From assembly GCF_964204865.1 (NCBI RefSeq), contig NC_135261.1, positions 682,001-746,000 on the forward strand: 64,000 nucleotides of DNA, given 5' to 3'. This DNA is from Styela clava (taxonomy: Eukaryota). Under the pieces are notes generated by a model. The model did not search any database and was not told where the DNA came from. It saw only the letters and a list, made by a program, of their open reading frames with translations. This document shows positions 24,585 through 64,000 of this stretch, piece by piece. The position numbers were made by a program, and so were the translations under genes. How positions within the stretch are numbered: the first letter of the stretch is position 1; each line of letters begins with the position of its first letter.

Positions 24585-27500
24585 TTACATTGTTTCAATC
24601 AACCGCTCAGGCTTAACCCTAAGACGTTTTGGATAACGTGAAATTTCAACAGATGTTTCATCAGGGCACAGGGTTTCACTTTCAGTACTAACATTAGGAT
24701 TAACAGGTAAATTTTCATTAGCACTAGGGATATCAACATTAAGATCAATTACATCAGTATTTGGAAACACAGAAGGCAATGAAACGTCATCATCCAAACT
24801 ACTATCATATGATTTCTCTAATTTCACTTTAGACATGTCCAATATTTGATCAATATGTCTTTTCCAGATCATTGAACCAACTTTTACACGATAGGTTACA
24901 GGACTCAACTTCTTTACGATTATTCCATGAATCCATTTTCGGTTTGGATCTCTATAATCACAAACTTGAACACGATTTCCAACTTCCAGATTTCTAATAG
25001 GCTTTTGCACTGGAGTTGTTCTTTTCGGCATCGAATTACTCAAATTAGGTTTCATTAAATCTAATCTTGTTCTCAGTCTTCTTTTCATGAATAATTCAGC
25101 TGGAGTACATTTCGTTGTAGAATGAGGCGTTGTTCGATAAGTTAACAAGAACGATGCCAACTTCTGATTCAGTGTTCCAGATAATCTTTTTAAAGTTTTC
25201 AGTGCAGTTTTGAAGGTACGCACATTTCTTTCAGCCTCGCCATTAGAGGACGGATGATACGGACTTGAGAAGATTTGCTTAATTCAATTTCGTATCATAA
25301 AATCTCGAAACTCTTTCGATGACAGGTTAGGAGCATTGTCGCTTACCAATATTTCAGGTAGTCCATATTTTGAAAATAAATATCTCAATGCATCAACAGT
25401 CTTTTCAGAAGTAGTTGAAGGCATTCTCAACACTTCAGGCCCTTTAGAATGAGCATCGACCACCACCAGAAAGTTTTCATTCATTATTGGACCAGCATAG
25501 TCAATATGAATTCTTTGCCATGGCTTCGTAGGCCATATCCATGGATTTCCAGGCGTTTTATTCGCAGGACTTCTTACTTCCTGACAATTTGAACAATCTC
25601 TCACTTTATGTTCAATTCTTTCATCAATATTCGGAAACCAAACATGCAATCTGGCTAATGATTTCATCCGAACCATACCAGGATGATTTTCATGCAGTTC
25701 ATCTAGTACTTCTGCAATATACTTTTCAGGAATAATAACTCTTATTCCCCACAGCAATATTCCTTCTTCCACAGTAATTTCATCTTTCCTCCTGTGGAAT
25801 GGCAACAATTCATTTGTAATTTCCTCCTTTGCAGGCCAACCATTTATAGTATACAGCAACACTCGTGAGAGCTTTGGATCATTTTCAGTTGCATGGCGGA
25901 GCTTTGCAGGAGTTATGGGAAGCGTATGAACTTGGTTTATGTTCATAATCGTTGCCTCTTCTTCCCAACAATCACGTATTTCAGACTGATCTGTTTTCAT
26001 GGGCAATCGGGATAATGCATCTGCATTCCCATTATTTTTCGTGTTTCGATAACATATTTCATATTTATATGCAGACAGTTTTATAGCCCACCTTTGCAAT
26101 CTGGTTGCAGTTAAAACAGGTATACCACGTTTTGGACTCAATAGCATAGTTAAAGGTTGGTGATCAGTCAACAATTTGAAATTTCGACCATATAAATACA
26201 CATGAAATTTTCTTACACCATATACAATTGCTAGTGCCTCTTTCTCGATTTGGGAATAATTTTTTTCAGCTTTTGTTAAAGTACGAGAAGCATATGCAAT
26301 AGGTTTTTCAGCACCATTTGGCAGTATATGAGAAATTACAGCACCAATACCTACAGATGAAGCATCAGTGGCAAGTACTAATGGTTTTTCAGGGTCATAG
26401 TGTACTAGCACCTCAGATGACACCAATATATCTTTCAGTTTCACAAAAGCTTTTTTACAGTCACTATTCCAATTCCATTTCATACCCTTTTTCAGTAACT
26501 TATTGAAAGGATCAACAAGGGTAGACATTGCAGGAATAAATTTACGATAATAATTTACAATACCAAGAAAAGATTGCAATTCTTTTACATTTTCAGGGCT
26601 AGGGATTTCCATTATTGCTTCAATCTTTTTCGGAGAAGGGTGAATACCTTCTGCATTAACAACAAAAGCAAAATATTCAACAGATGATTGCAAAAAACAA
26701 CATTTAGAACGTTTCAATTTTACACCAAATAAATTCAATCTATATAGAAGTTTTCCAAGAAATTGCAAATGACTATCATCATCTTTTTCAGTGACAATCA
26801 AATCATCTAAAATACAACCCACATTTGGCAATCCCTGGAGAATTTTCTCCATAGTTTCTTGGAAAATACTAGGACTAGAAGCTGCCCCATATGGTAACCT
26901 TAAATATCTAAATAACCCCATATGAGTATTAATAGTGACATATTTTTGAGATTCATCATCAAGTAAGACTTGTTGATAAGCTTCTGATAAATCAAGCTTT
27001 GAAAATTTCTGCCTCCCATTCAATTTACTAAATAGGTCCTCAGGTCTAGGCAAGGGATATTCAGGGACATCTAATTCAGGGTTTATAGTTACTTTAAAAT
27101 CCCCACAAATTCTTACTGAACCATCAGCTTTCAATACTGGAACAATGGGTGAAGCCCGATCAGAACTTTCAACTTTTTTCAGGACCCCCATATTTACTAG
27201 TCTTTTCAGCTCATCCGAAATTTTATCACGAAGAGCAAAAGGAACAGGACGTGGCTTGTAGAATTTCGGAATGGCACTTTCTTTCACCCTTAGTTTAGCA
27301 GTTATACCTTTTATAGTACCAAGGGAATTATCAAAAACAGGGTACTTTTTCAAAATATTCTCAAGCGTGAGCTTGGAACCAATATGACAAATACGATGCC
27401 AATTCAATTGCAATTGGGATATCCAATTTCTACCCAATAGTAATGGACCATTGCCACGAACAATTTGCAAAGGTAAATTTACACACTGTGACTCATATGC

Positions 27501-28558
27501 AACAGTAACATTCACTTTACCTAAGACCGTAATATTTTCACCAGTATAAGTTGTCAATACAACATTAGATTTCAGCAAAGGCAAATGTTTAAAATTCCTT
27601 TCATACATGCTTTCAGAAATGAGTGACACCCCACTACCAGTATCTAATTCAAATTTACAATCACAATTTTCGATTCTCAGTGGAACTACTATTGGACCAT
27701 AAGAATTAGACTTAGTAGTAAATACAGGACACATTTCATTTTGAGAACAGTCCGAAGACAGGTTATCATCATTCGTAGGTTGCATGTAGTCACAATTCGA
27801 AGACTTTTTACTTTTCAGAGGCTTGGAACCTCGATAGAAGTTATGTTGCATTGAGCATTTTCGACTTATATGCCCAATTCGTTTACATTTATGGCACTTT
27901 GCATTTCTGTAGAAACAGCTTTCAGCAGGATGATTACTTTTCCCTTATCGAAAACATTCTTTGAATTTTCGAATTTCAGAACGCGTTGCAAATCTTTGAT
28001 TATTTTGAACTTTATGAACTTTTGGTTTACTTTCATCTACTGGCAATTTTTCAAATTTGCAACTTAATTCATTGGCTTGTTTTTCTGCCAATTCCATACC
28101 AGTAGCAATTTTCACAGCATTCTGCAGAGTTAGGTCAACTTCAGTTAATAATTTACGTTTCATTCGAGTTGACATTAGTCCACTCACAAATCTATCTCTT
28201 AGTGAATCATTTAAGAACTCACCGAATTGACAATGTTCAGATAATTTCCTGAGCTGTGCCAGGAACTCATTCACAGTTTCTCCATCATGTTGGATTCTTT
28301 CATGAAATTTGACTCTTTCTGCTATCACCAATGGTTTGGGGTTGAGATGCAAGTTCTTTCAGTTGGACATAAGTCTTTTCACCAGGCTTTTCAGGAGCAC
28401 AAACTGTATGTTTGAGCCCCGCAAATGCTTAATAATATGGCTTTCTTTTTATCAGCACTTTCAATCTCGTTTGCTTCAAAATAATGTCCTAAGCGTTCAA
28501 CATATTCAGACCAATCTTGGCCATTACTATACTCTTCTATTTTTCCAAATGTAGTCAT
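24585..28558 (-). pseudogene. Gypsy gag-pol polyprotein (gag with 2 zinc knuckles, protease LDTGS, RT, RNase H, integrase), disrupted
   Basis: ATG at 28558 (MTTFGKIEEY..DWSEYVERL). Frameshifts near 28400-28350, in-frame TAA at 27945, 855-aa PR-RT-RH-IN ORF 27851-25284, then a frameshift into the integrase tail 25223-24585. Confidence 0.92.
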
Positions 28559-33588: not shown

Positions 33589-34547
33589 TTATAAATCAAT
33601 TTCACAGATGGCTCCGTGATATGCATGGAAAGGAGGAACATTAAAAATCCCTTGATCACCCGGGTTTCGATTGACTTCAACAACAACAGTTGTGTACGAT
33701 GCATCGGAATGCTGACGACCATTATACCAAACCTCAGTTGGTAGAGACATAGCTTGGCCCGTCGTTGAATACAGCTGACCGCCCTGTCGTTATAAAATAT
33801 ATTTTCAGAAATATAACAAAGTGATGTGACCATATGATCTGACGAAGCAAAACAAACTTATTTGGTCTTCAGTAATAAGCCTAATGAAGCGTGATTTCAT
33901 CACGTGACTGTTCTGCTCAGTCACACTTCAGTGATTACCGTTGGTGGATAAGAATTGAATGAAATAAACACATAAAATCAAATTAGTTTGGATTAGTATT
34001 TTTTGATTTGGTGACAGAGCTGTAAACTTGAAGCGTTCCACTGATGTTGGAGTCAAATTTTGAATCTCCCGGAAATATTACAGGGAGACGAAAGTTTGAA
34101 GTTGAATTTTTCGATAGAAACCGGAAAACCCTGCCAAATGAATTTTTCTAATCTTGTAGAATTTGATTTGAACTTATCTCCTATTCAATGGTTATATGGG
34201 TTTGAAAACAAAATGTAATAGCACGTGGTAATGCGGAAGCAATATCGGCATAACATTTATAAATGGTATTATAAATAATATTTTATGAGAATTTCATGTA
34301 TGGCCCCCAATGAAAAACATGATTCAGACTCGACCTACCTTGTAAGTCATTCCAGTACAAACCCGAATCCCTGACAATCCATCAGGAATCATGGATCGTA
34401 AATAATCAACAACCCGGTTGTAGTGTGTGACGTCATAAATGTTAGCCAATTTGTTTTCGCAAATAAATTCAGCGACGCTTAATGAGACGTTCCAAGTGTC
34501 ATAAACAATCGCTCGAAAACATCTTGAATTATAGACAACTCCACATT
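33589..34547 (-). CDS. Exons 12-13: C-type lectin-like domain (non-canonical, no EPN/QPD)
   Basis: CGVVYNSRCF..AEFIC..LANI..TGM | ...W....GAICE follows the CTLD scaffold. Confidence 0.8.
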
Positions 34548-37500
34548 CTGAAACAAAAATGACATTCAAAAATGTTTGAAGTCAGATATTTATGAAACTA
34601 TTATTAAGGAGAATATTTATTTCTACGTTTTAATTGAAAACTTTTTTTCGTTTTATTCAGGATAGTCGTCTTTTGTAGTTTTTTACAATAATATGATTGT
34701 GATCCTTCAGTAGTTTTGACCATACGTCATTTTGTTGGATTCAAGAAAGGACTCGCAAACTTACTCAGATATAAAGTAAACGTTTCTATGAGCAGATTAC
34801 GTGCAGCCACTGAGCTATTAGAGCTGAAGAAACATAGCAGTGAAATATGCGATTTATAATACAGGCCGATGGGACTTGACGAATATGAGCAGGATAAATC
34901 TATAACGTACTGAATATTCTATAAAAAACTTTTTGTCACGAAGCGAGTTCGTAGACAACCGGCACGATCGCCAGTAGATGCCGTGATTAATCAACAGTAT
35001 CAGTGGTTGCCTGCACAGTTTCTTATTTCAATGTAAAAATATTTCCAAAAATATTAGCTCGTTGCCTATCTGTAAACGTTTGTGCAGAGCCTTGTTCAGA
35101 ATGGAGGGATGGTTGAAACCAATAGGCTTCACCTATCTTTGGTTGCTCCTGTAGAGCCTTGTTCAGAGAGAATGTGTGAAAACTACCAGTAATAACAGCA
35201 TCTGCTTATATATCAGTAATTGCTTGTTCATTCAGAATGAACGTGTTTTAACGCCTAGCTCTTCACGTCGCATTATTTGTTTGTGTAGAATGTTGTTCAG
35301 AGTGAAAGCATGAAAACCGGAAGGTTCAATTCATTTCTGAGTGAGTGCGATGCCAGCAGGCCAGCGGTAATGTCTCGCGAGTCACATACGCTACGCCCCG
35401 AATTCAGGAGAGAGCACCCGCTGAATTTAATTTTTAAGAGTAGAAAACGAGGGCAACAGGGTAATGAGTAATGGTGAATGAACTGGAAAAAGTCTGGTGT
35501 CCAATCTGCGCGCAGGCAACAAGAATGAATACGGTGACGATAGGGATAGATATTTAGTCCCAATCGCCATTTTAAATGCCTCCCCTATACAGGGCTATTG
35601 GGCTGCCAAATGGATAGCAGGTTATGGATCGCCATTTAGATGGCCTCTTCCACACAGGACATATAGACAGTAGTTTGGGGATGGATATATGGCCCCAATC
35701 CTAGACTTGGAGGAATTTACGAATATACGAAATTTATTTTCGCATACCTCGGCAAATTTCAAATTGCCTAAAGTCGTAATTGTTGACTAAACGCACTTAG
35801 TGTTAGAAAAGAGTCGGAAACCACCTTTTTCGTTCTTTTTGGATGACTGAAAAAGTCGCCAATAACGCGTGCCATTGGATTTTCTTCAAATCGCAGATTG
35901 TTTTCATCAGCGCAGTGTGCTACTTAAAGCCTTAAACACCTTCACGTTGTTATTTATTCTCTCTAAATCACAAATTACGCGAGGACGATAATATTCACTT
36001 TTCGGTTCTCGCAAGGAATTGTGAGATTGTTGTTGAAAACAAGTCATGATATTATATTCATCGGCGACGAGATGCTAGAGATAATAAAGAGGTGAATCCA
36101 CAACCCAAATATTTTGATTGAAAAGCGGCATTGTAAAATAATGAAAGTAAAACTAAGAGAAAAGCCATAAGTTTTGTTTTAGGAGGCTTGGGACAGATCA
36201 AAAATGCTTTTTGGACATTGTCAATCGCAAATGGCTCACATTATGTTGGATTGTCTTTGACGCTAAAGCGTTTTTCGGAAATTACGAATGAAAACAAGAT
36301 TATATTATCGGGCACAAAGCCACACATTTTTATGGCCGCGGCATTTTGGATTAGTAATCCTTTTATATTTTTAGTCAACAAAACAGCAGGTTACATTGAA
36401 CACAATTAAAGCATGATATTTTAAATATGCCTGTATGTGGATTAAATGGATTGATGAGTCATGGATTAAGTACTTTGGGCAATTGTGAATTGTACTTCCG
36501 AAGTTTTTAACGCAGACCCAATCGCCATTTAAAGTACCTCTCCCATACGGGGACGTTGGTCTGTCTTATGGAAAGCAGGTTATAAATAGGGATGGATATA
36601 TGATCCCAATCGCTATTTGAATGGCCTCCTCTATATGGGGATATAGGTCTACAGACAGCAGTTTAGGAATGGGGATTGATATATGAACCCAATCGCTATT
36701 GGAATGGCCTCCCTCATACAGGGCTATTGAGCTGACATATAGACAGCTGGTTAGAAATAGAGATGGATATATGGCCCCATTCGGAATTTGAATGGTCTCC
36801 TGCATACAGGGCTGTTGACAGGGCTGGGCATTGCGGAAAAAAAGTTTAGGAATAGGAATGGATATATAGACCCAATCGCTATTAGAATGGCCATCCCCCA
36901 TACAGGGCTATCATATGAACTGCAGGTTAGAAGTATTGATGGTTATATGTCCTATATAGCTATTATATAGACTCCTCTATACAGGGCTACTTGGCTGCCT
37001 TATAGACAGCAGGTTGGAAATGGGTATGATTGAATGATCTTAATCGCTAAAGAAAAAACTCACGAGTGCATGCTGGTGTTGTAGACCATGAGCCGTCAGC
37101 TTTGCATGTTCCCGTCTGCCCCCCTTCCAAAGTGTAACCACTGCTGCAAGAGTAACTGACCTCCTGATCTTGACTGTACAAGTTATGCTCAGGAGAAATT
37201 GTTCCGTTCTCGAGATTTCGCTTAGCACAAGGTGTAGCTACAAAAAGAAATGATGAAAAAGTTTAACTCGCAGACTATTTGTTTCTTTCAAATCTGTAAA
37301 ATATTTCGTAAAATATTTAAAAATACTGGAAACTTACTTACTTACCTAGACCATAACATTCGGAAGAGTTCGAAGTTGTTATGTTGTCTAACTCTACATT
37401 CCCGGATGCGTCAAGCACAAGTTGGACCTGAATAAAATAAAAAAGATTGAAGTTTGAGCGAGGCAGAAACTAGAGCAGGAATGGGCAGGGTTTTCAGAAA

Positions 37501-40500
37501 AGGGGCAAAAAAATTGTAATGTAAAAGCGGACCATGTAAAAGTGACGTAAACAGTTACGTTTCATAAAATATTTGCAAAAGCAAAGTTTAAAATCAATGA
37601 ACCGCGTACCAAAACAAAATTTAATCGCAATCTTAACAGTTTCTTTGAGCTTTTTTTTTTTTAGCTTAAACGCCAAAATTTGATTTTAGTTTAATTGTGG
37701 CAGCATCGGGCGGGCCAGATTAAATTACCCAACGGCTGTTTTTGGCTAGCGGCCCGTACTTTGCTCATCTGTATTTGAACGTATCGTAATTGCAAAGGGA
37801 TTCTCACAGAGTCAAAAGATCTACATTTGAGGTTTATACATGCGGAGTGAAAGGTTGGTAATATGTGTTCCCTGTTTGTAAAGGAATTCTAGAAAAACTT
37901 CAATTATGCGAAAAAATGATTATAACCCTCTGAGCGCTGATAAAGCTAGACCTGGACCTGGAGCAGAAATTTGGACATTTAGATTGGCGGACCATGTAAG
38001 TGCGACGTAAAAATTACATTTTATGAACAATTTCGCAATCGCATTTTTAAAAAATTCCTCAAGTTATTTTCAGCTAAAATGTCAAAATTTGGTTTAGTTT
38101 GGTTGTAGCAGGATCAGGCGGGCCAGATTGAATTTCCCAACTGGCTGAATTTAGCCCGCGGGCCGTAGTTTGCCCATGTCAGAGCTAGACTACGCCCAAC
38201 CAGAATTTTAAAAAGCTTTCGCGTTTTATGAGATGGGATTCACATCCCAAGCAATTCCGATTTAAATTTTCCAATTTTAAAATTCCAATTTTTCCAATTT
38301 TTGCTAAAAGATGTGTTACAAACCTCAGTATCTGTAGAGTTCACTTTCTTTAAAACGAATTTCTCTGTTTTCCAGATAGTCGAGGCAGAAAACGGCCAGA
38401 TTGCTTTCCTAAAAGTTACAAAACATATAATTGCTGCCTTTACATAGACTTCCAAAAAAATCAAAATCGGTTATACTCGGCATTTCCAAGGAATCCCATT
38501 TACATGAAATCTATTTTTCAGCTCTTTTTCCGAGCGCATCAAATTTAACTGTCTTAAAGTCTCCCGTTAATCAGCAATGTGAAATTCACCGCTATAGTTA
38601 TTTATAGTTTTAGCAGCTCTTCATATTACAGAGCTTGCCAGTAGTTTTGTTCCCAGATGATACTCAAAGCAAAATTTTTGAATTACCCTAAAACAGGGGC
38701 GAGCAACCTTTAATAGGAAGGGCCAAATACAAATAACTGGGTGAAGCCGCGGGCCGCAACTTTTATTTAACATGGGCTTTGCTCGACAACATGACATGTT
38801 CATAGGCATAGATAATAATTTGGACCGAAATATAGGTTTTGCAACGCAAAGGGATTGGAATTCCTCAAAAGTATCAGATTAAATTAAAAATTTGTTTTGC
38901 AAGCCGCACATTAGACAAAACTGGCACTAGGCCGCGGGTGTCACAATTTTTTTTCGTGAGCCGCGATTTCTTTCTGGCGGCAGGTGGCACAAGCATGATC
39001 TAAAACACTGAATTTCAAATTCCGTTATCGGTTTATAAAAATTATAAATCCTCACTGTATAGCGGCTGCCAATACAAAGCCTTCTTTGGGGTGAAAGCGG
39101 GAAATATTTGGGTAAAAAATAAATGCAGTGTTAGCTACTCACGTTACAGTTCCATTGTGAACCTTGGCCACCAGTTCTCCTTCAGATGTCCCTTTTATGT
39201 CGACACTCATGCATAGTTCCTCATTGCCAGCCAAAGGTAAGGATCTGATTGTACCATTACCAGCAAGAACATAACCTAGAATGAATTAGAATATAAAAAA
39301 ATGTGTATCTGGTGTGAGAACTGGGATAAAGCTTGAGTATTTTTCACAATGAGTTTTTTCTATTTTAGCAAGGGTGTCTGAAATCTTTGCGCTATGGTGG
39401 CTCAATTGCGCAATAATTGAAATATGGGTTGTTGTTCTTTGGTGTAAAATTTGCTCCTTAGCGATGTTGTGCCCTCTCAGAAGAAGGGATGGTCAATTCA
39501 AACAATTGGCGAATAATTTAATTTCAGGAAATCTAAAAACTACTGTGCACTGATGCTATTTCGTGAAGTTTTATTTAATGACAAAGAAACTACAACCTAT
39601 GCAAATTTGCTTTTTAAAACTTAAATATATCGATGCGATGGAGAAAATTCAATTTTCATTTCCACTGTGAATAAAATCAGTATAGGATTCGATTCAATCC
39701 GAGTATTTTAGAATGGTAAATTACTCTCAGTTACAAGAACTCACTAAGCGAGAATTATGTATGCGCAGTTACCGGCACTCACTGGAAAATAGTGGAAACT
39801 CAACTCTGAGTAAATTTACGGGCACTCACACAGAAGCAAAAGTGACTCATCTCCAAACAAAAATTATGAAAACTCACTCAGAAGTGAAGGATACTCATCT
39901 CCGATCAAAATTACAAACAAAAAGTTACAGATAATCACTCAAAAGTAAAGATTTTGTAAGCAATGTTACGGGCAGCCATTATACTTTGAGCAAATTTTCT
40001 TAAAAACAAGGCATTTCATAAAAAAAAACAATACCTGTAATGTCCTTATCTCTCTCAAATGTTCCATTAACTATCGTGTAGCCGCATGTAGGGTTTGTTG
40101 AAGACTCAAAATCACACGTAAGATCGACTGAAAAACGCAAAAATTTTTTTTTAGAGTCAGAGCCTTGTATTCTGGCCTAAACTGAATATTGCTTCATTGC
40201 GAACAGGCTGTAAAATCAGATCAAATTAACAATTAACATCGGGTTGAAACAATTTTAACTCCGACTCAGCTTCGAAGTCCAGAGATAAATAAATATCGAA
40301 ATGTCGGACTTTCAATTGTGACAATTCAAAGTTATCAATAAAAACTCAAAAAGCAAGTTTGCAAAGAATTCATAACAGTCTATTTGAGGAAGCTTGCATA
40401 TATTGGACTTTAGAGATGCAAATTTTTTCTGAATATACATATTTTTATTCGGAGTTAACCAAGCTTTTAAAATATAAGATTTTTGTATTTATCACATGGG

Positions 40501-43500
40501 AGCGGAAAACCAATGACACAGCTCAATCAAATAGCGAATCCCACCCATTACCAGTTCATGTTGGATTTGGAAATAGTTAACTAGTTAATTGTTTCAGATA
40601 CATGGACTTAATGGTGAGGAGTCCGGTATACGACCAGCGGTTATGTTAACCTCTCGCACATAATTATCCCGTATTGGATTTCAATCGGGAAACCACACAA
40701 GGTAATTAATCGAAAGTGCAATTACAAAGAAATACCGAATGCACAGCCCTATGTAAACACTTACCTACACAAGTGGGCACTTCCCCCCAAGTTCCATTTT
40801 CTTCGCATTTTCCGATGTTGGATCCTTGAAGAACGTATCCAGCATTGCATGAATATTCGATAGTTCGACCAAATTCTAAGTCAGGTGCGGTCGTAGTGTC
40901 TACAGTCCCGTTGTCTGGAGCTTTGGGTGCCTGGCAGGTATGTACTGTAACTGAACATTGAAACAGTTATAAGGGTGCAGACTAGACTTTTCAACAAATT
41001 TGCCAAATTTCATATTGTATAAGTATTTGCATCTCCTTAACCATGAATAAAAAACAAGAATTTAGAGCCCGGATCTGTGGATGGGCAAACTATAACCCGT
41101 CACAGCCTTATGTGTTGTCAATCAGCTCTCGGAAAAGTTGCGAAAATTTTTAACGACTACCAGACTACATACAAAAATGAGACTTGTTTTCAAACTTAAC
41201 TCAAAAAATCTAATCTGTGAATTGTTAAAACAGTATCAATGTTTTTTTAATTTCCGGTTCAGAAACCATTAAATTCGACACCACCATAGTAAATTGGAAT
41301 TGTGATTGTGATGTCACATACAATTTTTTGAATGAGATCCTTGCCAAAAAAGTTTGCCCCCACCCCCTCCTCTAGAGTCGAAACAAGACAATTATTGAAA
41401 TATGAGGAGCCCCTATTCTTGGATCACACTTTTTTTTGTTTGGGGCATTAGGGTCTGATCAATTCTGTACTTGTCTTGAGGTCGTTAAGGGTCTAAAAAG
41501 CGTTTCAAGATATGAAAAGATGCTTTTATTTTTACATTTAAAAAAAAGGAAAGGGGGGGGGGGGATTGGGGGTTGGTTGGGAGGGGGTAATGATACCAGA
41601 CCCAGATTTCTCGAGTAGAACGCCGAAACGACAGCAACAAAGGGCACGAAGCGAGGCTACGCAAGATTACGGACGCCATCTTACAGTAATTTTTTTCTGT
41701 CTTATATTAGGGTGGCTTGAGGGGACAAAGAAAGTAATTTTTATAGAATAAGTCGTAGGCGATAACGTTGATATCTTTTATTCAAGCAAATACGTTTGGT
41801 GTTTTGTGATTCGTTTTCAAATATCGCTTCAAAAAAGGCGTTAGACAAGACAATTACTAATACATAAGAAACAACCTCTTTTGGAAATGTCGCAATTTTC
41901 CCTGTTCTGCACCTCAGGTGCTGAGGAATTTCTAATAAAGATATTAAGGCGTACTAGAGAGCGTGTATGGGAGAAGTATTTTCCGAATAAAAACGAGAAA
42001 GAAAAGGCCACACCAACCTGTACTCTGTTTGAATTTTGTAGTTTGTGGGAGCAAAGTAGAGAGAAAGGCTTCCTTAGTTGACCACGGGGATGTAGCAGGG
42101 ACGGTTGAAGAGCGCGTCGTGTTCTTGACTTTGTTACCTGTGTGAAAAAGTGAGTTTATATTAAAAGTTCATAGTAACATTTATAGTTTTGATTACTTCA
42201 AGGTAAGAATGAGACACTGAATTGCAATGTCAATATATTTCGAAATTTTTCTCTTTAACCGTTTTTGCACAATCGTCTTATTATCGATTACTAGGACTGA
42301 AAGTGACCTTTCTAATAACTATTCTATTGCATGCGATACCAAATACCATAGACTTTCATACCCTGAGGAGTGGTCGTTTCTTTGACTCCTACAACAGGGG
42401 GCTGCACTGAGTTCGTCTCTGCTTCTTCCATCACTTTTTCCAATTGATTGAGCTCACTTTTCATCCCGTCTAATCGTTCCGTTAAAGCTGCGAAGCATAA
42501 ATAAAACAGAAGTGAAATTGGGGCCATAAGTTTTACAATACATTTTCACTGAATTTTTTGTTATAAGATTTGAATCGCTTCCTTTCTGGTTAAAAATAGG
42601 AGAGATATCAGATGGGTATTGCTAAACTACACGTCATGATGTGATTGTTAAAAAGGGCGCGATAAAAATATAAAAGGATTGAGCTTTTTCTAGTAAAACG
42701 ATGGTACTCCAGAAGTATGCGTACCAAGATGGCGGGCACTGGAACGTAGTATGTGTACCAGGTTAGGGTTGAGCCATAATTTCATTCCAATATTCGAGTT
42801 CGAGGACTAGTCAAGTGACTCCCGTAGTTTTTGTACCTAAAATTATGGCCTAACCCTAACCTGGTACACATACTACGTTCAAGTGTCCGCCATCTTGGTG
42901 GTACGCATACTTCAGCAGTACCAAAACGATTGTTTAGGGGCATTGTTTGCTGTCAGACCGTTAAAAAATATGAAAACATAGCATACGTATTTCGAAAGAA
43001 ATTGTATTGTGGACACGAACCTTCCAAAGCTTTCTCTTCTTCTTTTGTGCACTGTCCATTCTGAAATAGAACAAGAGAAAAAAGTTTGAACACATGGAGA
43101 TGAAGGCTGCACTACGCTAAAGTAAGGGGTTAGCTGAGCAAGTGTTCAAACAAAACAGTCAAACAAAACAGTTATTTTTACAAATAATACTGCCTATATG
43201 CAACTACTGCTGAAGCTCTCACCGTATTAACGTCTCTCCAAGTAGGTTCCCCATTGCAAACCATAGGCGCCCAGCATTTCTCACCTGTTGAGAGAAAATC
43301 GAAATTAGAAATCGAGGGAATTGTTTCGTTTAAAATAGATAAACGAAAATTAAGTTACTGAACTTTTTTTTATAACGAGACTAATTCATTACCCATCAAC
43401 TTATGGCGCGAATTCGCCCATTCCATATATAATTTTACACTATTAAGCGAAATATTATCCTCCATTGTGATTGGTTGAATCAAATTTGAAATATTACGCC

Positions 43501-44366
43501 CGCTTTGGCGGAACCTACCAATGTTTAGCGGTCTTACGGGCATAAACGAGGATCTGACCGATAACCGCTGTTCAATTTCTAGTTTTTGAGAATCGTTTCA
43601 ATGTTTCTGGCGAACATTGCACTCGGGAAAGTCAAATTCTCTCATAGTTTGCTGCTTTGGACTTTTCGTTTAGACTTTGATTAAGATAGTTCCGAATACT
43701 TCTGAAGTTTATTTAACATCCTTCAATGACTTTTATTTTACGTTTTATACGCTTTTCTACCCGAACGAAACTATGTGTGAACGGCCACTGAAACGTAATT
43801 AACTGCTATACTTTGAATTGGCAGCAATCTTGTTGGTTCGGCATTGCCTATTCAGTTGACAACACCATGGGTGAAATGGTGGCTATAAAATTGAACCAGA
43901 TATTATACTACGAGATTCCAAAATAAACGAGTCTAATGCTGTACAAATGAGCCACCACGCCCGCTAATCTACGACCAAATATTCTCGTCTGAACAAAACG
44001 ATTTGAGAATTACGATACCAAAAATTGAAGTTCAAAAGCTAAAACTTTTCATGATCCTCTCCTCGGCAATTCTAAAACTAAAGCGTCTTATCGCATATTT
44101 TTAAAACAATATTATGATGAAGAAACGGCAATTTAGCACGAACTACTGTACGGCAGGGAACACGCATTGAATACGAAAAATCATTTATCATTTGTATCAA
44201 TGACAGTCTCCGCTCTTGGAGTGCAATGAAGATCTAGTTAGATTTTCACTTCAACTAATCTGATCTCTAACGCAAACCCAACATAGAATGCACGACTTTA
44301 CTAACCTTTAATCAATGAAAATGCCCCGATGAACATAAGAAGTATGCATGAAATCGGAATCTTCAT
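33589..44366 (-). CDS. Secreted mosaic protein: signal peptide, Cys motif, coiled coil, S/T-rich, CCP(sushi), MAM-like, CCP, C-type lectin (13 exons, 521 aa)
   Basis: Exons with GT-AG ends and consistent phases: 44366-44306, 43284-43223, 43060-43021, 42487-42362, 42137-42018, 40950-40765, 40127-40035, 39275-39143, 38408-38324, 37427-37346, 37237-37064, 34547-34339, 33783-33589. Total 1566 nt with no internal stop. Starts MKIPISCILLMFIGAFSLIKG and ends YHGAICEIDL. Confidence 0.8.
35394..35513 (+). pseudogene. Decayed 28S (LSU) rRNA 5'-end fragment in intron 11 (paralogous copy at about 60239-60360)
   Basis: ACCCGCTGAATTTAA (35416-35430) is followed by AGTAATGGTGAATGAACTGGAAAAAGTCTGGTGTCCAATC, colinear with LSU AGTAACGGCGAGTGAACAGGGAAGAGCCCAGCGCCGAATC. 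Most differences are C>T or G>A. Confidence 0.7.
36515..37040. repeat. Intronic minisatellite, about 85-bp unit (also 35540-35700 and 61640-62100)
   Basis: Repeated CCCAATCGCTATTTGAATGGCCTCC..ATACAGGGCTATTG...GGGATGGATATATG. Confidence 0.85.
37064..37237 (-). CDS. Exon 11: CCP/sushi domain 2
   Basis: PCAKRNLENGTISP...VSYSCSSGYTLEGGQTGTCKADGSWSTTPAC. Phase 1-1 exon. Confidence 0.9.
37346..40127 (-). CDS. Exons 7-10: short, divergent MAM-like domain
   Basis: Begins LTCDFESSTNPTCGY, has an internal LCMS and ends GNVELDNITTSNSSEC, resembling the MAM start CDFE..CGW and end IALDDI..C. Confidence 0.65.
40765..40950 (-). CDS. Exon 6: CCP/sushi domain 1
   Basis: CQAPKAPDNGTV...IEYSCNAGYVLQGSNIGKCEENGTWGEVPTC has the 4-Cys plus Trp pattern. 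Phase 1-1 exon. Confidence 0.9.
42703..42922. mobile_element. MITE with about 80-bp TIRs and 8-bp TSD (Merlin-like GGTAC termini), in intron 3
   Basis: GGTACT..GAAGTATGCGTACC.. and ..GGTACGCATACTTC..AGTACC. TSD AAAACGAT at 42695-42702 and 42923-42930. Partial relatives at about 10998-11110, 31268-31350 and 60450-60607. Confidence 0.85.
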
Positions 44367-44486: not shown

Positions 44487-44493
44487 CTTTATA
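44487..44493 (-). promoter_or_regulatory. Possible TATA box of the lectin gene
   Basis: TATAAAG on the minus strand, about 120 nt upstream of the ATG at 44366. Confidence 0.3.
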
Positions 44494-49699: not shown

Positions 49700-50480
49700 G
49701 AATAAATTTGGCATCACAGCACATTTTTGTTCTAAAGATTTTGTTCTTCACAGTTATATCATTGGTGTAAAGCCTGTACATGAAAGGCACACTGCCGACA
49801 ATATTGTAGAATGGATTTGTGAAACTGTCGGGCATTACAGCATTGTAAATAAAGTAACAGCTTCGGTCACAGATAACGGCTCCAACATGCTGAAAACGAG
49901 AAAAATCCTGGAGACTGACAAATATTTTTGGAATGTTAATTGAGCAGCACATACTTTACAACTGTCACTTTAGTTTCATTTGTATTAGTATTTCAATTGG
50001 TCTGTGTAAAATCCCGTTTTCTTATTGTGCAACTTTGTTTAATGCAACTGCGTCAATATTTGGAAAAAGAAATGTCTGGAGTGGGTCAAGGTGAAATCTA
50101 TGAACAAGATTCAATAGAATGCCCAGATGTGAACTAGAATCAGCAATCAACTCATCACTTTTGTTGGACCTCATTTCATATTTATAGGATTTTGCTGGTT
50201 CAAAAGGATTTCTTGCATCAGATAATATAGCAAATGAGCTCAACCATTACATGAGATGCAAGACTACTAACATTGATCCACTTACATGGTGGCGTAGTAA
50301 CAAAACATGTTATCCTAATGTGTCACAGCTTCCCCTCAAATATCTATCAATTCCAGCGACGTCAACACTTTGTGAACGAGTTTTCTCATCTTCAGGCCGT
50401 ACAGATAGAGAGTTGAGGTTTAACCTAACAGGCAAACACGTAGAGGCCCTGGTTTATTTGGGGGGGGGGGGGATGCGGAT
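49700..50480 (+). pseudogene. Decayed Ac/ZBED-like hAT transposase (element probably about 48400-50863)
   Basis: HTADNI..VTDNGSNM at about 49790-49890 and DPLTWWR..YP..LSIPATSTLCERVFSSSG..R..LTGKHVEALVYL (hAT dimerisation). Weak GTTTCGAAA inverted ends. Confidence 0.8.
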
Positions 50481-58601: not shown

Positions 58602-61600
58602 TTATAATTCATTTTCACAGATGGCTCCGTGATATACATAGGAAGGAGAAACATTATAAATCCCTTGATCATTCTGTTCTGAGTCATGGTTGACATCAAC
58701 AGCAACAATTGTGCGAGATGCATCGGATTTCGGATGATCAGGTCGCCAAATATTACTTGACAGAGATATAGCTTGGCTCGTCGTTGAATACAGCTGACCG
58801 TTCTGTTGAAATAAAAAATATATTTCATGAAATATAACGATTGGCAATTTGAGAATATAGTCGAGTAAGGTTGAACCAGTAATCCTGGCCATATGATCTG
58901 ACAAAGCAAAACAACCTTTCTGGTGTCCAGTAAGAAACTGAATGAAGCGTGACACCACCACGTGATTATTCTGCTCTGTCACACTTCAGTGATTACCGTT
59001 GTTGGATAATAATTGAATAACAAACACGACACACAAATCAACTTAGTTTGGATTAGTCTTCTCTGATTTAGTATCAGAGCTGTAAAGTTGAAGCGTTCCA
59101 CTGGTGTAGGAGTAAACTTTTGAATCATCCGGAAACTTTAAATGGAAACGAAAGTTTGGGGTTGAATTTTTTGAAACTGGAAAACGCTGGCAAATGAATC
59201 TATCTAATCCGTAGGATTCGATTTGAACTTCTCTCCTATTCTACAATTATATGGGTTTAATCTCAAAATAAAATGTAATAGCGCATGATAATGCGGTAAC
59301 AATATCCGCCATAATAATAATATATAATATTATAATTAATATTTTATAATGATTTCATGTATGACCCCATAAACAACATGATTCAGACTCGACCTACCGT
59401 GTAAGTCATTCCCGTACGAACATAAACGCGTGTCCATCCATCAGGAATCATTGGTCGTAAATAATCTAGAACCCGGTTGTAGTGTGTGACGTCATAAATG
59501 TTAGCCAGTTTGTTATCGCAAAGAGATTCAGCGACGCTTAATGTGACGTTCTGTGCTTTGTAAACGATCGCTCGAAAACATTTCAAATTATAGACAAAGC
59601 CACATTCTGAAAGAAAATCCACAGTCGAAAAAGTTTGAAGTCAGATATTTATGAAACAATTATTAAGGAGAATATTTATTTCTACGTTTTAATTGGGAAC
59701 CTTATTCATTTTATTCAGTATCATTGTCTTTTATAGTTTTTTTTTACAAGAAAAGGGTGGTGATCCCTTTAGTAGTTATGATCATACGTCATCTTATTTG
59801 AATAATAAAGGTCTCGCAAACTTACTCAGAAATAAAGTAAACGTTTCCATGAGCAGAATGCGGGAAGCCACTGATCTATTGGGGCTGAATAAATATAGCA
59901 GTAAAATATACGATTGATAATACAGGCCTATGGGACTTGAAGAATATGAGCAGGATAAATCTATAACGTACTGAATATTAGATAACTGGAATTCCTAACT
60001 ATATTTTAGTTGCTTCTGTAGAGAATTCAGAGAGAATGTGTGGAACTACCGGTAATACCAGCATCTGCTTACATATCAGTAATTGCTTGTACAGGGCACA
60101 TTCAGTATGAATGTGTTTCAATGCCTAGCTCTTCACGTCGCAATATTTGTTTGTGTAGAATGTTGTTCAGAGTGAAAGTATGAAAACCGGAATGTTTTGT
60201 TCAGCAGGCCAGTGGTAATGGATCACGAGACACACATGGCCCGAGTTCATGAGAGAGCACTGGCTGAATTTAATTTTTGATCGTAGGAAACGAAGGCAAC
60301 AGGGTATTCGCTGAGTAATCGCTAGTAATCTGGAAAGAGTCTGACGTCAAAGCTGCGCGCTGGCAACAAGAATGAATACGGTGGCGATAGGGATGAATAT
60401 ATATGTTCCCAACCACCATTTAAAAGGACGCTGACTTAAAATTGAACCAGATTAGGGTTAGGCCATGATTTCATTCCAAATTTCCCTATTTTAGTTCTAT
60501 TGCGAGTTCAGAGACTAACCAAGTAACTCCCGTAGTATTTGTACCGGGAATTATGGTATAACCCGTACCGGGTACACATACTACGTTCCGGCGTCTGCCA
60601 TCTTGGTTTATATCAGGGGCCGCAGGACGATAGTTTGCGGCGCCCGCCTTGGTATGAAAGTTTAATGTTAGTGCGGCCCGTAAGTCACTCAGCTCAGTTA
60701 GAATGATTGATTCATTTGATATATGATCAGGACAAGTAGAGCAAAGCAAAATATTCAATAATCCATCCAGCGAAAGGAATATGCGGTACGGTAACCTACT
60801 AGTACCGTACCTGTAGGCATGATATTCGATTGGCCTTTGACCCCGAAGAAAATTTTCTTATACTTCACCATTGCAAATTATTGGTGCTTATTTTAGAGGT
60901 GGCTTCGCGAGTTGAAGCCTATAAACTGGGATATATGTTTCACGTCATCAATTCGATTCAAAATATTCAACAACCTGTTTTCCAACAGTACCGGTAGAGA
61001 AATTTAACCTAGTCTATCACATCTATTTCTAGACTAATTTTTTATTAGAGCAATTAAGCTACGACGTCCAAGCAATCAGAATGATCATTGAGTTCTTTGA
61101 TTCATACTTGAATTTCTGAAACACAACCAAAAACTAACAAATAGCATGCAAAAACAAGATAATTCCATATAAACATGCCTAAAAATCTTTCTGAGTGACA
61201 AGTGTCTGAGCGTTTGCGAAAAAGTCTATTGTTACGTCACTTATTGCGTCCTGCTGATTAGCCCATGTTACGGAATAAGCAAGGAAGTAGATGCTCGGGG
61301 AAAGGTCCATCGCGATATTACTTCCATTTATGTTTTTGACATGTTTTGCGTATAGAAAAAAACAAAGAAAAGATATAACTTTTTAAGTTTAATGATTTTA
61401 TTGTGAAAAACCCGATGCGGCCCGGACTCACTAAGGTAAATTGAGTTTGAGACCTCTGCTTTAGATACTATGGGAGTACTTTGCAATGTACCGGATGTTT
61501 GCAATTCATATCGCTATAATTCCGTACTTTTATGTCTGGAGAATTGGATAAATTTAATCCGAGTAAAACTATAACAATGGCGTGGTCATTACGTAAGCAA

Positions 61601-64000
61601 TTTTGCCGTAATTACGGAATTTATTTCGGTCGTGCAAGCCTATGGCCAATTCCCATTTAAATGGCTTCCGTCATAGAGGAATATTGGGCTTCCATATAGG
61701 CAGCAAGTTAGGAATAGGGATGGATATATGGCTCCAATCCATTTTAATGGCCTTCTTCATACATGTGCTCTCAAAGCCATGTCAGAGGAATCATACACAA
61801 TTTTATGGTCACGATGGCCTTGCGGTAAAAGGGTTAAACACAGCTGTGTCTGTATCTCACATACAAGGATATATGATGAACATATGACCCCAATCGCTAT
61901 TTGACTGGCCTCCTGCATACAGGGCTATTTGGATGCCATATAGACAGAAGGCTAGGAATAGGGATGGATATATGACATTTCGACAGCAGGTTAGGAAATG
62001 GAACGAATATATGACACCAATCTCTATTTAAATGGCCTATTCCATACAGGGCTAATGGGTTTCCATATGGACACCAGGTTAGAAATGGTAATGATTGAAT
62101 AATCTTAATCACAAAAGAAAAAAACTCACGAATGCACACTGGTGTTGTAGACCATGAGCCGTCAGCTTTGCATGCTCCCGTCTGCCCCCCTTCCAAAGTG
62201 GAATCATTGCTGCAAGAGTAACTGACCACCTGATCCTCACTGTACAGGTCTTGCTCAGGAGAAATTGTTCCGTTCTCAAGATTTAGCTTAGCACAAGGTG
62301 TAGCTACATAAAGAAACGATAAAAAAGTTTCACTCGCAGAGTATTTATTTGTGAAATGTTTCGTCCCTTCAAACATGTCTTTGTGGAAACAGTCCAGCCA
62401 TTGATACACACTCACTGCAAACAAGGCTTCGTGCAATCAGCCATTGATAATTTATTTAACTACTGGAATCTTACTTACTTACTTACCTAGACTATAACAT
62501 TCGGAAGAGTTCAAAGTGGTTATGTTGTCTAACTCTACATTCCCGGATGCCTCAAGCTCAAGTTGAACCTGAATGAAATGAAAAAGATTGTGAAGTTTTA
62601 GCAGGGCTGCAAGGTAGAGTCTAGTAGTGGGCAAGGTTTTTAGACAAGGGGTGGAAATATTTGCCCCATCTAGACGAGCGGGGCCACGTAATAGTGACGT
62701 AAAAAGTTACGTTTATTTTAAAATATTCACAATATTTACAAAAACAAAGTTTAAAATCAATGAACCTTGGGCTAAAACTGAGCATAATCGCAATCTCAAC
62801 GAACCCCTTGAGTTATTTTTAGGTGAAACGGCAAAATTTGAGTTTAGTTTGGTTGTGGCAACATCAGGCGAGCCAGATTAAATGACCCAATTGGCCCACG
62901 GGTCGATCCGTCCTTGAACGTATCGTAATGCCAAGTGGATTCTCACAAAGTCAAAAAATCTACTTTTGAGATTTATTCTTGCGGAGAGGAAAGTTGGTAA
63001 TATGTGTTACCTGTCTGTAAATGAATTCTAGAAAAACTCCAATTATGCAAATAAATGATTATAACCCTCTGCGCGCTGATGATGCTCTACCTGGACATGA
63101 GGAAGAAATTTGGCCATTTAGACCGGCGGGCCATGTAAAAAGTTACATTTTATGAACAACATTTACAGTTACAAAAGCAAAAAACATTTCACTCAACTTT
63201 TAAACAAATTCCTTGAGTTATTTTTTAGCTAAAAGATCAAAGTTCAGTTGTGACAGCATCAGGCGGGCCAGATTGAATCACCCAACGGGTTAGATTTGAC
63301 CCGCGGGCCGTAGTTTGCCCATGTCAGAGCTACACTATGTCCTACCAAAATTTTAAAAAAGCTTTCGCGTTATGTAGGATGTTATTCACATCCAAAGCAC
63401 TTCCGATTTAATCGGATTTTCGCAAACAAATATGCTGCAAACCTGCGTATCTGTATAGTTTACTTTCTTTAAAATGAATTTCTCGGTTTTCCAAGTAGTC
63501 GAGGCAGAAAACGGCCAAATCGCTTTCCTAAAAATTGCAAAACATATTATTGTTGCCTTTACATAAACATCCAAAATAAATCAAAATTAGTTATATTCTG
63601 CTTTTTCCAGGAACCTCATTTATATATAATTTATTATTTAGCTTATTTTCCGATCGCATCAACTTTCACTTCAGTTCTCCCACCAATCAGTATTTACTGA
63701 TGTGGAATGCACCGCTAAAGTTATTTATAGTTTCAGCAGCTCTTAACACTCACAGGTGATCCTCAGAGGAGAATTTATTGTTTTTTAAATAATCTAAATC
63801 AATGAATTTTAAATTCCGTTAATCGTTTTCAAAAAATAATATTTTTGTTTTACTGTACAATGCCCGCTTTGGAGTGAGAGCGGCAAATAGTCGGATAAAA
63901 AAAATAAATGCAGCATTAGCTACTCACGTTACAGTTCCATCGTGAGCCCTGGCCACCAGTTCTCCATCAGATGTCCCTTTTATGTCGACACTCATGCATA
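58602..64000 (-). CDS. Tandem paralog of the CCP-MAM-CCP-CTLD gene (3' part; 5' exons lie beyond the window)
   Basis: Exons >64000-63928, 63527-63443, 62568-62487, 62303-62130, 59606-59398, 58802-58602. Same phases as gene 1 and same lengths (last exon +6 nt). All are open. Confidence 0.85.

Follow-up and report, generated by a model that had tools for sequence, protein, structure and literature searches.

Background

GBL of Halocynthia roretzi, as described in passages of PMC8605247 and PMC5465252, is a secreted ascidian lectin with an N-terminal coiled coil instead of collagen and a C-terminal C-type lectin domain (CTLD); it binds sugar and, via its collagen-free design, MASP (PMC8605247). 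The same passages describe oyster CgCLec-CCP as a collagen-free CTLD protein with one CCP, which binds microbes and a MASP-like protease and activates C3 (PMC8605247). According to parts of PMC12074976, the snail VIgL families (FREP/CREP/GREP) are secreted multigene recognition proteins with a coiled coil and a terminal lectin-type domain, and their diversity comes from gene conversion and point mutation. In the DGR variable proteins Mtd, TvpA and AvpA, the C-type-lectin fold is the scaffold and the variable site runs from about beta3 to just before the invariant beta5 (passages of PMC5006420).

For Styela clava, portions of the genome paper report expanded complement recognition genes, and its Table S8 gives species-specific expansions (151 uncharacterized, 88 surfactant-associated, 81 collectin), which may include the lectin-tip family reported here (PMC7540406); passages of that paper hold no description of the family, and gene ids of the expansions are absent from the supplement portion searched. 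In the main text of the S. plicata genome paper, the words "lectin", "collectin" and "sushi" are absent (PMC12627437). No description of the family was found in the literature searched, which was mostly without subscription papers.

Here we analysed a window of 64,000 nt from S. clava (GCF_964204865.1, NC_135261.1, 682,001–746,000); all coordinates are positions in this window.

Gene model and splicing

The gene comprises 13 exons on the minus strand (1566 nt; 521 aa plus stop), with GT-AG ends throughout, matching phases and no internal stop. The domain order is signal peptide, Cys motif, four heptads, mucin linker, CCP, short MAM-like jelly roll, CCP and C-type-lectin fold, distributed as follows:

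44306..44366, minus strand: exon 1, ATG and predicted signal peptide (aa 1–21; hydropathy peak 2.1)
43223..43284, minus strand: exon 2, N-terminal Cys motif (C24, C30, W36)
43021..43060, minus strand: exon 3, C45 and helix start; intron 3 skipped in X5 and X10
42362..42487, minus strand: exon 4, heptad segment (about aa 53–77) and linker start
42018..42137, minus strand: exon 5, mucin-like linker, S/T/P-rich
40765..40950, minus strand: exon 6, CCP/Sushi 1, phase 1-1 module (PF00084 E 2e-13; omega 0.42)
40035..40127, minus strand: exon 7, MAM-like domain part 1 (C203, C213)
39143..39275, minus strand: exon 8, MAM-like domain part 2 (C251), with the 5'/3' similarity switch inside; intron 8 skipped in X5 and X10
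38324..38408, minus strand: exon 9, MAM-like domain part 3; intron 9 skipped in X5, X8 and X10
37346..37427, minus strand: exon 10, MAM-like domain part 4 (C326; whole-domain omega 0.43)
37064..37237, minus strand: exon 11, CCP/Sushi 2, phase 1-1 module (PF00084 E 1.5e-10; omega 0.57)
34339..34547, minus strand: exon 12, C-type-lectin fold, first half (C389, C397, C417; selected sites 405, 406, 445–447, 449)
33589..33783, minus strand: exon 13, C-type-lectin fold, second half and stop (C517; no EPN/QPD/WND; selected sites 482, 487, 493, 496, 500, 506, 507, 510, 511)
58605..64000, minus strand: exons 8–13 of the next tandem copy, frame intact; its 5' part lies outside the window, to G000:C16:751118

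P0004, an NCBI S. clava protein of 526 aa, has the identical domain order and aligns end to end with the 521-aa model at 84.8%; because of this full-length agreement, the model is not a product of chance. Together with the GT-AG ends and phases, it bears out the 13 phase-compatible exons and the domain order of an earlier note on this DNA, whose N-terminal Cys motif, heptad segment, mucin-like linker and many N-glycan sequons (11) are likewise found in the model. A secreted protein with no transmembrane segment, as that note had proposed, is also predicted here: in 19-residue hydropathy windows the N-terminus alone is strongly hydrophobic (2.1), with at most 0.83 beyond residue 25 (values from the first exon model, in which the frame of exon 5 differs). 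Every relative that was named comes from Styela clava, and none has been characterised; the domain order, reported before as unrecognised, already exists in uncharacterised S. clava NCBI models.

Contigs of three putative RNA runs join exons across introns 3, 8 and 9 where the model places the GT-AG ends; they also skip introns 7 and 12, there with a few letters replaced. None of these RNA-type joints is present in the DNA-like run X1. RNA-type support therefore covers at least 5 of the 12 introns (among 15 joints listed, with 144 more beyond the listing). The contigs differ from the window by about 4–10% and therefore derive from paralogs or alleles. Three studies thus have runs with spliced family transcripts, but RNA-type contigs differ from this copy at listed sites, and none of those examined could be matched to it. 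The search of protein relatives returned none with exon 12 of this copy. Intron 11, the CCP2-to-lectin junction, is absent among the RNA joints listed and is based on NCBI models. Nine NCBI proteins carry the cassette exons and the tip in one chain, with tips matching G000 tips at 100%, so the possibility that the lectin exons form a separate gene, which the earlier note had named as one refutation, was rejected.

Coiled coil, linker and CCP-MAM-CCP stalk

C24, C30 and W36 are invariant in 24 aligned relatives, and C45 is at least 90% conserved. Hydrophobic residues occupy 8 of 11 a/d positions in the heptad segment, whose exon (exon 4; 68 genome matches) has a weak Pfam match to HSBP1 under the cut-off (E 0.014); a sequence-profile search of solved structures gave weak coiled-coil matches alone (E 0.04 or worse). 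The mucin linker carries variable 11-aa repeats, and 26 of the 60 residues in aa 81–140 are S, T or P. The heptads stop near aa 77 and the lectin fold begins at 389, which leaves a gap of about 310 residues, and the 521-aa model has no collagen Gly-X-Y region.

Both CCPs, with four Cys, exceed the Pfam PF00084 cut-off (50.8 and 41.7 bits vs 20.7). In this gene they are two single modules parted by the jelly roll, and some paralogs have runs of 3–7; a search of solved structures with P0046 returned CCP proteins alone among the 60 matches listed. The MAM-like domain (about 130 aa vs 158 positions in the Pfam model) has no Pfam MAM match in the window exons, P0004 or 30 members, and a genome-wide PF00629 search (150 scored of 210 candidates) listed at least 128 matches, none at mapped family loci. 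In models of relatives, the jelly roll matches the MAM domains of SR-C (8yt7; Z 10.9) and neuropilin-1 (10.8) as well as PTPmu (10.8), about tied with CBM4-2 (11.9). LAST-MAM has the top identity among the Foldseek matches listed (22–25%), and the four Cys of the jelly roll stand in what we take to be MAM-like places. Bacterial toxin receptor-binding domains and carbohydrate-binding modules (CBMs) are also listed; we take these matches to reflect a common beta-sandwich fold rather than homology. No Pfam match to an Ig domain was found, the 521 aa being filled by coil, linker, two CCPs, jelly roll and CTLD.

Two other S. clava proteins, P0048 (locus L036; "C4b-binding protein alpha chain-like") and P0044, have the CCP-MAM-CCP exons in identical order with 74–80% DNA identity, and their MAM-like part is 61–64% identical in protein to that of the lectin-tip family. 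P0048 is a membrane protein with an N-terminal WAP-like domain, four more CCPs and a C-terminal mucin and membrane segment, without a lectin fold; its combination of WAP and CCP resembles nematode LEV-9. Judged from sequence, this WAP/CCP membrane gene is likely the donor of the cassette, which would make it a clean and recent example of an invasive species capturing an exon cassette.

Lectin-fold tip

The tip model of a relative, P0013 (pLDDT >90), aligns 118 residues to CL-K1/collectin-11 (4yli) with Z 15.5 and rmsd 2.4 and reaches Z 15.2 with tetranectin; all 50 structure matches listed are CTLDs. Pfam Lectin_C gives no match in the window exons or P0004, and is reached in 2 of 30 aligned members (best E 0.021). 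The MAM and Lectin_C labels rest on modelled structure, not on Pfam, and since Pfam misses two of the four folded domains, members are annotated as "uncharacterized", "SVEP1-like" or "ZP3R-like".

C417 and C517 are invariant in 27 tips, while C389 is found in 26 and C397 in 25; the outer disulfide (alpha1 to beta5) and the long-form N-terminal Cys pair would thereby be present. EPN/QPD and WND are the motifs for Ca2+ and sugar in this fold. The tip of this gene lacks both as well as the inner disulfide, therefore it is no collectin-type sugar binder; the Asn at the WND position is retained. Among 132 collected lectin-fold proteins (a set that takes in isoforms and near-duplicates), none has EPN or QPD within its final 75 aa, one has WND there and 118 have a single Cys there; collagen is found in 25 of the 132, more distant relatives, one of which is named surfactant protein A-like. 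This copy also has an unpaired Cys451 and Gln in place of the conserved Pro481, which could reflect its decay. The "collectin-like" mechanism proposed earlier is not supported, with the coil about 310 residues from a fold that lacks these motifs and the inner disulfide. The collagen-free layout of coiled coil and CTLD has a precedent in ascidian GBL (passages of PMC8605247).

Diversifying selection

Diversifying selection is strong, limited to the lectin fold and robust to the controls run. For 27 unique intact tips, codon models gave omega 1.26, with 2dL of 251 for M2a vs M1a (omega2 4.9 on 14% of sites) and 260 for M8 vs M7. In the stalk, omega is 0.43 for MAM (29 sequences), 0.42 for CCP1 (21) and 0.57 for CCP2 (28), and no test was significant. 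The tip signal persists in gap-free columns (2dL 198) and when the two tip exons are given separate trees (121 and 109); neutral simulations with recombination (four replicates) gave 0–9.7. Tree-free pN/pS is 1.01 in the tip vs 0.37–0.45 in the stalk, rising to 1.5–2.3 in four tip segments chosen after the site results, and dN exceeds dS in 200 of 351 tip pairs vs 2 of 406 MAM pairs. The stalk domains and the tip framework are under purifying selection. The codon models were run with our own code, whose M0 likelihoods match IQ-TREE to 0.1 unit.

Fifteen tip sites are selected by empirical Bayes posteriors and show 25 distinct residue sets among the 27 tips, and the positions equal to the Ca2+/sugar motif sites are hypervariable. 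Judged from the predicted secondary structure and the general layout of the CTLD fold, the 15 sites would presumably form one surface. Selection limited to the lectin fold supports the recognition role suggested before.

Family size and mosaicism

The tandem family, noticed earlier, has five copies on one strand in 224 kb. Cassette-bearing loci number about 35, and the lectin-fold exon superfamily has at least 150 exons, with at least 150 genome matches each for exon 12 (150 scored of 456 candidates) and exon 13 (150 scored of 295 candidates). About a quarter of loci (10 of 34) are flagged as broken, two of the flags resembling extraction artefacts.

This gene is a 5'/3' hybrid of two neighbours, with the similarity switch in exon 8, which also has a 2-codon deletion vs most paralogs; the 5' half of the next tandem copy is 95–99% identical to its own. 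No DNA contig spans the switch among the matches listed. MAM and tip have incongruent trees, a common one for the two being rejected by AU tests. In 5 of 7 proteins found only in UniRef/nr, the tip is just 72–86% identical to the best extracted G000 copy, vs 94–98% for the MAM part. By these alignments, family copies are mosaic, and the CCP-MAM-CCP cassette is common to the WAP/CCP membrane gene.

Interpretation

The tip is without the usual sugar-binding residues and evolves much more quickly than the remaining protein, and on balance we therefore favour an inherited immune repertoire of varied microbe sensors: an intact copy of a Styela multigene family, predicted to be secreted, with a conserved stalk and a lectin-fold tip that diversifies fast and whose likely targets are varied foreign surfaces. 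The four heptads and the N-terminal Cys motif would bundle the chains, probably as disulfide-cross-linked trimers, and the mucin linker and CCP-MAM-CCP would form a glycosylated spacer, which could dock complement or a cell receptor. Two isolated CCPs alone do not demonstrate a complement role. The tip would bind via loops and strand ends, including positions of the lost Ca2+/sugar site, probably Ca2+-free, with protein or complex glycan as target. Tandem duplication, unequal crossover or conversion, and point substitution under selection would supply new specificities, with decay of about one copy in four.

A bolder extension, which we put forward only tentatively, is a chordate germline system of "variable head, constant stalk", in which the C-type-lectin fold is a DGR-like paratope scaffold, crossover shuffles heads between stalks, giving repertoires that differ from one individual to the next, and the recently captured CCP-MAM-CCP is the constant region through which any head is linked to complement or phagocytes.

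The protein might instead act in tunic, mucus or settlement, as a secreted glycosylated rod managing fouling organisms, microbiome or substrate cues, its tips chasing environmental surfaces rather than blood pathogens. The variable 11-aa repeats, the 11 sequons, the tie of the jelly roll with CBM4-2 and the peak of S. clava complement-type genes at metamorphosis (parts of PMC7540406) agree with such a role, but omega near 5 at tip sites is unexpected from a purely structural one, and we consider it unlikely. It overlaps the immune-repertoire reading in mechanism and differs in place.

Diversifying selection also fits gamete or self recognition. Known ascidian self-incompatibility involves few loci with linked partner genes, whereas here exon 8 has 38 genome matches spread over 8 contigs, diversification is among paralogs and a membrane anchor is absent. 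Gamete or haemocyte allorecognition, in which the protein would be a self/non-self marker or receptor with variable tips that show or read individuality and a stalk anchored in egg coat or plasma, is therefore rather improbable, although tips diverge between individuals and one relative is auto-named "zona pellucida sperm-binding protein 3 receptor-like" (a name that may reflect CCPs alone). Parts of the ascidian literature name three self-incompatibility loci and describe the polymorphic CCP-containing vCRL1 among other self markers (PMC5465252, PMC6916515). From the sequences, the many unlinked paralogs would favour pattern recognition over allorecognition.

A recently amplified, mostly redundant family might drift under relaxed constraint, with gene conversion mimicking selection and this copy a silent hybrid or assembly mosaic. 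The broken loci, incongruent trees, lack of a matched transcript and an exon-8 switch spanned by no listed DNA contig would fit. This is very improbable, given the purifying selection on stalk and tip framework, pN/pS of 1.5–2.3 in the four segments drawn after the site results, recombination nulls of at most 9.7 vs 251, and family transcripts spliced in three studies. A Ca2+-dependent sugar lectin of GBL/collectin type that starts the lectin complement pathway is hardly credible: collectin-11 is the top structural match, the WND-position Asn is kept and distant relatives have collagen (one named surfactant protein A-like), but EPN/QPD, WND and the inner disulfide are absent, the equivalent positions are hypervariable and no neck adjoins the fold.

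Known non-antibody recognition scaffolds are Ig, leucine-rich-repeat or fibrinogen domains. The family points to the C-type-lectin fold minus its sugar site as another variable scaffold, bears on the question of specific recognition without antibodies in invertebrate chordates, and yields 15 named residues and natural head/stalk swaps for testing.

Comparison with known systems

Insect class C scavenger receptors are membrane receptors with a CCP-CCP-MAM layout; they share with this gene a CCP adjoining a MAM or MAM-like domain, and their MAM is among its fold matches, but they are membrane-bound and have neither coil nor CTLD. Selectins carry an N-terminal CTLD, EGF, CCPs and a membrane anchor, and were rejected since the CTLD is C-terminal here and EGF and membrane segment are absent. 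Regulators of complement activation bind C3b/C4b through at least three tandem CCPs; this gene does not have such a run, its two single CCPs being split by the jelly roll.

Collectins (MBL, SP-A/D, CL-K1) and tetranectin share the N-terminal Cys, coiled coil and terminal CTLD, and are the top fold matches (Z 14–15.5). However, this gene lacks collagen, the Ca2+/sugar motifs and the inner disulfide, its coil lies away from the CTLD and its tip is hypervariable, and a canonical collectin was rejected for want of Gly-X-Y, a coiled-coil neck directly before the CRD and sugar motifs.

CgCLec-CCP is likewise a collagen-free combination of CTLD and CCP, but it keeps CPD/WPD motifs, and coil, MAM and family-wide diversification are not reported in the PMC8605247 passages. 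GBL, compared by its description in the passages cited above, is also ascidian, with a coiled coil replacing collagen at the N-terminus and a terminal C-type-lectin fold, as in this predicted secreted protein; here, however, a mucin-CCP-MAM-CCP stalk parts coil and tip, the tip has lost its sugar motifs and the diversified copies number in the dozens. With the DGR proteins, as portrayed in those passages, the likeness is analogy only: 8 of the 15 selected sites (487–511) fall in the stretch from about beta3 to beta5, and beta5 is nearly invariant here. Identity with DGRs was rejected, as there is no retroelement mechanism; duplication, recombination and selection make the variation, and further sites lie near beta1 and beta2. 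The best functional analogue, on the parts of the snail literature cited, is FREP/CREP/GREP, which are likewise secreted and multigene with coil and lectin tip; their diversification by gene conversion and point mutation is paralleled here by germline mosaicism and selection. The present family, however, is chordate, has no Ig domain but a CCP-MAM-CCP stalk, and its measured variation is of germline origin, with most of it in the lectin fold.

Focal gene and its transcripts

The focal gene (33589–44366, minus strand) lies in AT-rich DNA with introns, GC being 0.30–0.42 across the window. Its 13 exons have GT-AG ends and compatible phases and give 521 aa with no internal stop, which bears out the length and motifs described in an earlier note; the lack of a transmembrane segment in the focal protein, also claimed there, holds as well. 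A candidate TATA-like hexamer is located at 44488–44493 (minus strand), ~120 nt upstream of the ATG. Exon 12 was found in 41 proteins (41 of 49 candidates passed), and every one with a legible organism comes from Styela clava. None of these 41 is identical to the focal copy, which may therefore be unannotated; P0004, an NCBI relative of 526 aa, matches it at 84.8% over the full length.

In contigs of three presumed-RNA runs from three studies, introns 3, 8 and 9 are skipped precisely, introns 7 and 12 with some letters replaced, and none of the intron 3, 7, 8, 9 and 12 joints is present in a DNA-like run. Because these contigs differ from the focal copy by substitutions and by 6 nt inserted in exon 8, splicing is proven for the family, not for the focal copy. 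One contig from run X10 (presumably RNA) spans exon 13 plus the 3' flank and is ~95% identical to the focal gene; among 14 listed differences, 5 agree with the copy at 649k of contig C16, 2 with locus L019 and the rest with neither.

Mobile elements and repeats in the window are as follows.

~13548–17073 and 19936–24052, plus strand: two fragmented LINE-type elements, read by eye
~18238–19534: hAT-like transposase remnant, splitting the first LINE-type element
24588–28358, minus strand: Gypsy-type LTR retroelement gag-pol, one frame with two in-frame stops
~35550–37000, intron 11: degenerate tandem repeat with a ~60–70 bp unit, seen in the sequence
~37700–38200, 38700–38900 and 39800: smaller repeats
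~42700–42900, intron 3: palindromic element in high copy number, with very high depth in each of the four runs
50188–50496, plus strand: remnant of a hAT dimerisation domain, identified by eye

By eye, the Gypsy-type element has zinc knuckle, protease, RT, RNase H and integrase motifs, and the LINE-type fragments have a CCHC-knuckle ORF1, endonuclease and RT pieces. The palindromic element is likely a MITE.

Domains and loss of the sugar site

In the focal protein, about four heptads occupy residues 53–77 and two CCPs score above the Pfam cut-off. The C-terminal lectin fold (the tip; exons 12–13) and the jelly roll between the CCPs were assessed on predicted models of two close relatives, P0013 and P0046. 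The P0013 model has a mean pLDDT of 79 (>90 in the tip), and the best 50 matches listed in its structure search are all C-type lectins, led by collectin-11 (Z 15.5, rmsd 2.4, 118 aligned). In the P0046 model (mean pLDDT 72), a jelly roll is predicted that matches MAM domains at Z 10.8–10.9, about tied with CBM4-2 at Z 11.9. Given these MAM-domain scores, together with four Cys and a 22–25% match to LAST-MAM, we label the modelled domain MAM-like, which is not proof of a MAM. Most of the genome's 128 listed Pfam MAM matches fall in a very large gene or array with many MAM domains at 6.35–6.49 Mb of contig C9.

The focal tip retains four Cys and is missing the inner pair, and it contains neither EPN/QPD nor WND. 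Among 132 stored lectin-fold proteins of the superfamily, EPN or QPD occurs in none and WND in 1, and 118 have a single Cys in the last 75 residues. Judged from these motifs, the tip does not belong to the canonical sugar binders, and the pattern holds across the superfamily. On a presumed mapping, positions 480–482, 487, 505 and 506 would correspond to the Ca2+/sugar ligands of mannose-binding protein; in 27 tips, position 505 is an invariant Asn, and positions 482, 487 and 506 are hypervariable. P0077 (LOC120332703) is a single secreted chain of five tandem lectin folds of the motif-less type.

Family census and species range

Contig C16 carries five copies on one strand within 224 kb. Genome-wide, exon 8 gave 38 matches from 38 candidates on 8 contigs, including a few within-gene repeats and one membrane-type gene, and exon 4 gave 68 of 68; exons 12 and 13 each gave at least 150, among 456 and 295 candidates, respectively. 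Broken flags were raised for 10 of 34 units reaching exon 13 (fetched around exon-8 loci), two of them probably extraction artefacts. The third tandem copy (C16:765–776k; L002–L004) has a truncated exon 6, an exon-8 frameshift and an exon-9 stop, and its tip has the same translation as the tip of the intact copy at 740–751k. The fetched loci differ in how many CCPs stand before and after the jelly roll, and linker length varies by 11-aa repeats; at loci L032 and L048, the MAM-like exons 8–9 are internally duplicated.

A search of 1.84 billion representative sequences returned 104 matches, 30 of which were looked up: 22 are S. clava, 7 Logan contigs and 1 has a cut name. So far, the form with the CCP1–MAM-like–CCP2 cassette (exons 6–11) is confined to S. 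clava among the relatives found. In 25 of the 132 lectin-fold proteins, all distant relatives, collagen replaces this stalk; one distant relative bears the name surfactant protein A-like.

Mosaic copies and origin of the cassette

Copy-to-copy identity was measured in 300-bp tiles. From upstream to intron 7, the focal gene is mostly 93–100% identical to the next copy, as part of a tandem unit of 24.7 kb. Beginning with exon 8, its best agreement is with the copies at C16:787k, 649k and L019, mostly at 92–99% identity, and one 10.9-kb block matches at 96.5%. The switch would be explained most simply by unequal crossing-over around exon 8; an assembly mosaic could also produce it, as none of the listed contigs runs across. 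MAM and tip trees have only 4 of 21 splits in common, and AU tests reject each on the other. In 5 of 7 proteins present only in UniRef/nr, tips are 72–86% identical to the best extracted genome copy and MAM parts 94–98%, which suggests, for cassette loci, that tip repertoires may differ between animals.

Phase 1 is shared by the joints of exons 5/6, 6/7, 10/11 and 11/12. The linker is joined directly to the tip in P0006, P0014 and P0041, while P0056, P0067 and P0069 are divergent (33–39% identity), keep the N-terminal Cys motif and, being <300 aa, are too short for the cassette. Locus L036 contains exons 6–11 in order at 74–80% identity, and its product is a WAP/CCP membrane protein with no lectin fold. 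We infer that an L036-type gene was the probable donor of the cassette and an older coil-mucin-lectin gene its recipient.

At loci L052, L053, L054 and L056, the signal/Cys/coil/mucin front is joined to lectin-fold heads that are far more distant (P0140, P0141, P0144), so the front, too, moves from one head lineage to another. In a cluster on contig C10 (P0007, P0015, P0019, P0143), close tips follow an unnamed N-terminal domain of another kind, for which Pfam gave no match; P0143 has both fronts in series.

Selection on the tip

Codon models were run on intact, non-identical domains of the fetched loci (27/29 tips, 29 MAM, 21/22 CCP1, 28/29 CCP2), leaving out broken copies and L036; our own code reproduces IQ-TREE likelihoods. 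Tip omega is 1.26, and M2a vs M1a gives a 2dL of 251 and places 14% of sites at omega 4.9 (M8 vs M7, 260), while stalk domains have omega 0.42–0.57 and every selection test on them is non-significant. The control values were 198 for gap-free columns, 121 and 109 for single exons, and 0–9.7 in four neutral recombinant simulations, one of which exceeds the nominal 5% level. Tree-free pN/pS is 1.01 in the tip vs 0.37–0.45 in the stalk, with similar pS.

Fifteen tip sites exceed 0.95 (405, 406, 445, 446, 447, 449, 482, 487, 493, 496, 500, 506, 507, 510 and 511). On predicted secondary structure they fall in the beta1-alpha1 loop, at the beta2 entry (alternating), within the long loop, on the beta3-beta4 hairpin and in the loop that precedes beta5, whereas beta5 itself and the core are conserved. 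Of the residues at these sites, 30% are Y, W, F or R, and 25 residue combinations occur among 27 tips. A counterpoint to the selection results comes from comparing the focal gene with the copy at C16:649k: divergence in intron 12 (8.4%) is on a par with that in exon 13 (8.2%), against 3.5–4.3% in the flanks, and therefore whole-tip-segment exchange contributes alongside point selection.

Possible mode of action

The family has a conserved stalk and a variable tip, and it evolves as a mosaic by birth and death. The protein would be secreted, the Cys motif and heptads would bundle chains, the spacer may dock complement or a receptor, and the variable face of the tip may bind non-self surfaces. 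An immune repertoire is, on balance, our favoured reading. A role in tunic, mucus or settlement is unlikely, and allorecognition slightly more so. Drift or artefact is improbable beside the selection tests and controls, and a canonical lectin, with EPN or QPD in none of the 132 proteins, is scarcely credible.

Comparison with known systems

The focal protein is a CTLD/CCP mosaic protein and, as tested, falls outside the collectins, selectins, complement regulators and VIgL (the snail FREP/CREP families). Literature searches gave no account of such an architecture or of selection acting on it. Expansions of families labelled 'surfactant-associated' and 'collectin' are reported in the S. clava genome paper (PMC7540406), and these families probably overlap the superfamily. 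Among invertebrates, lectin families that have diversified are common; the lost sugar site, sharply localised selection and putatively captured cassette have good support and can be tested. FREPs/CREPs (PMC12074976) are most similar to the family in its presumed way of working, the Halocynthia lectin GBL shares its collagen-free plan and CgCLec-CCP its CCP (both PMC8605247), and DGR proteins (PMC5006420) use the same fold for variation, which the family echoes.
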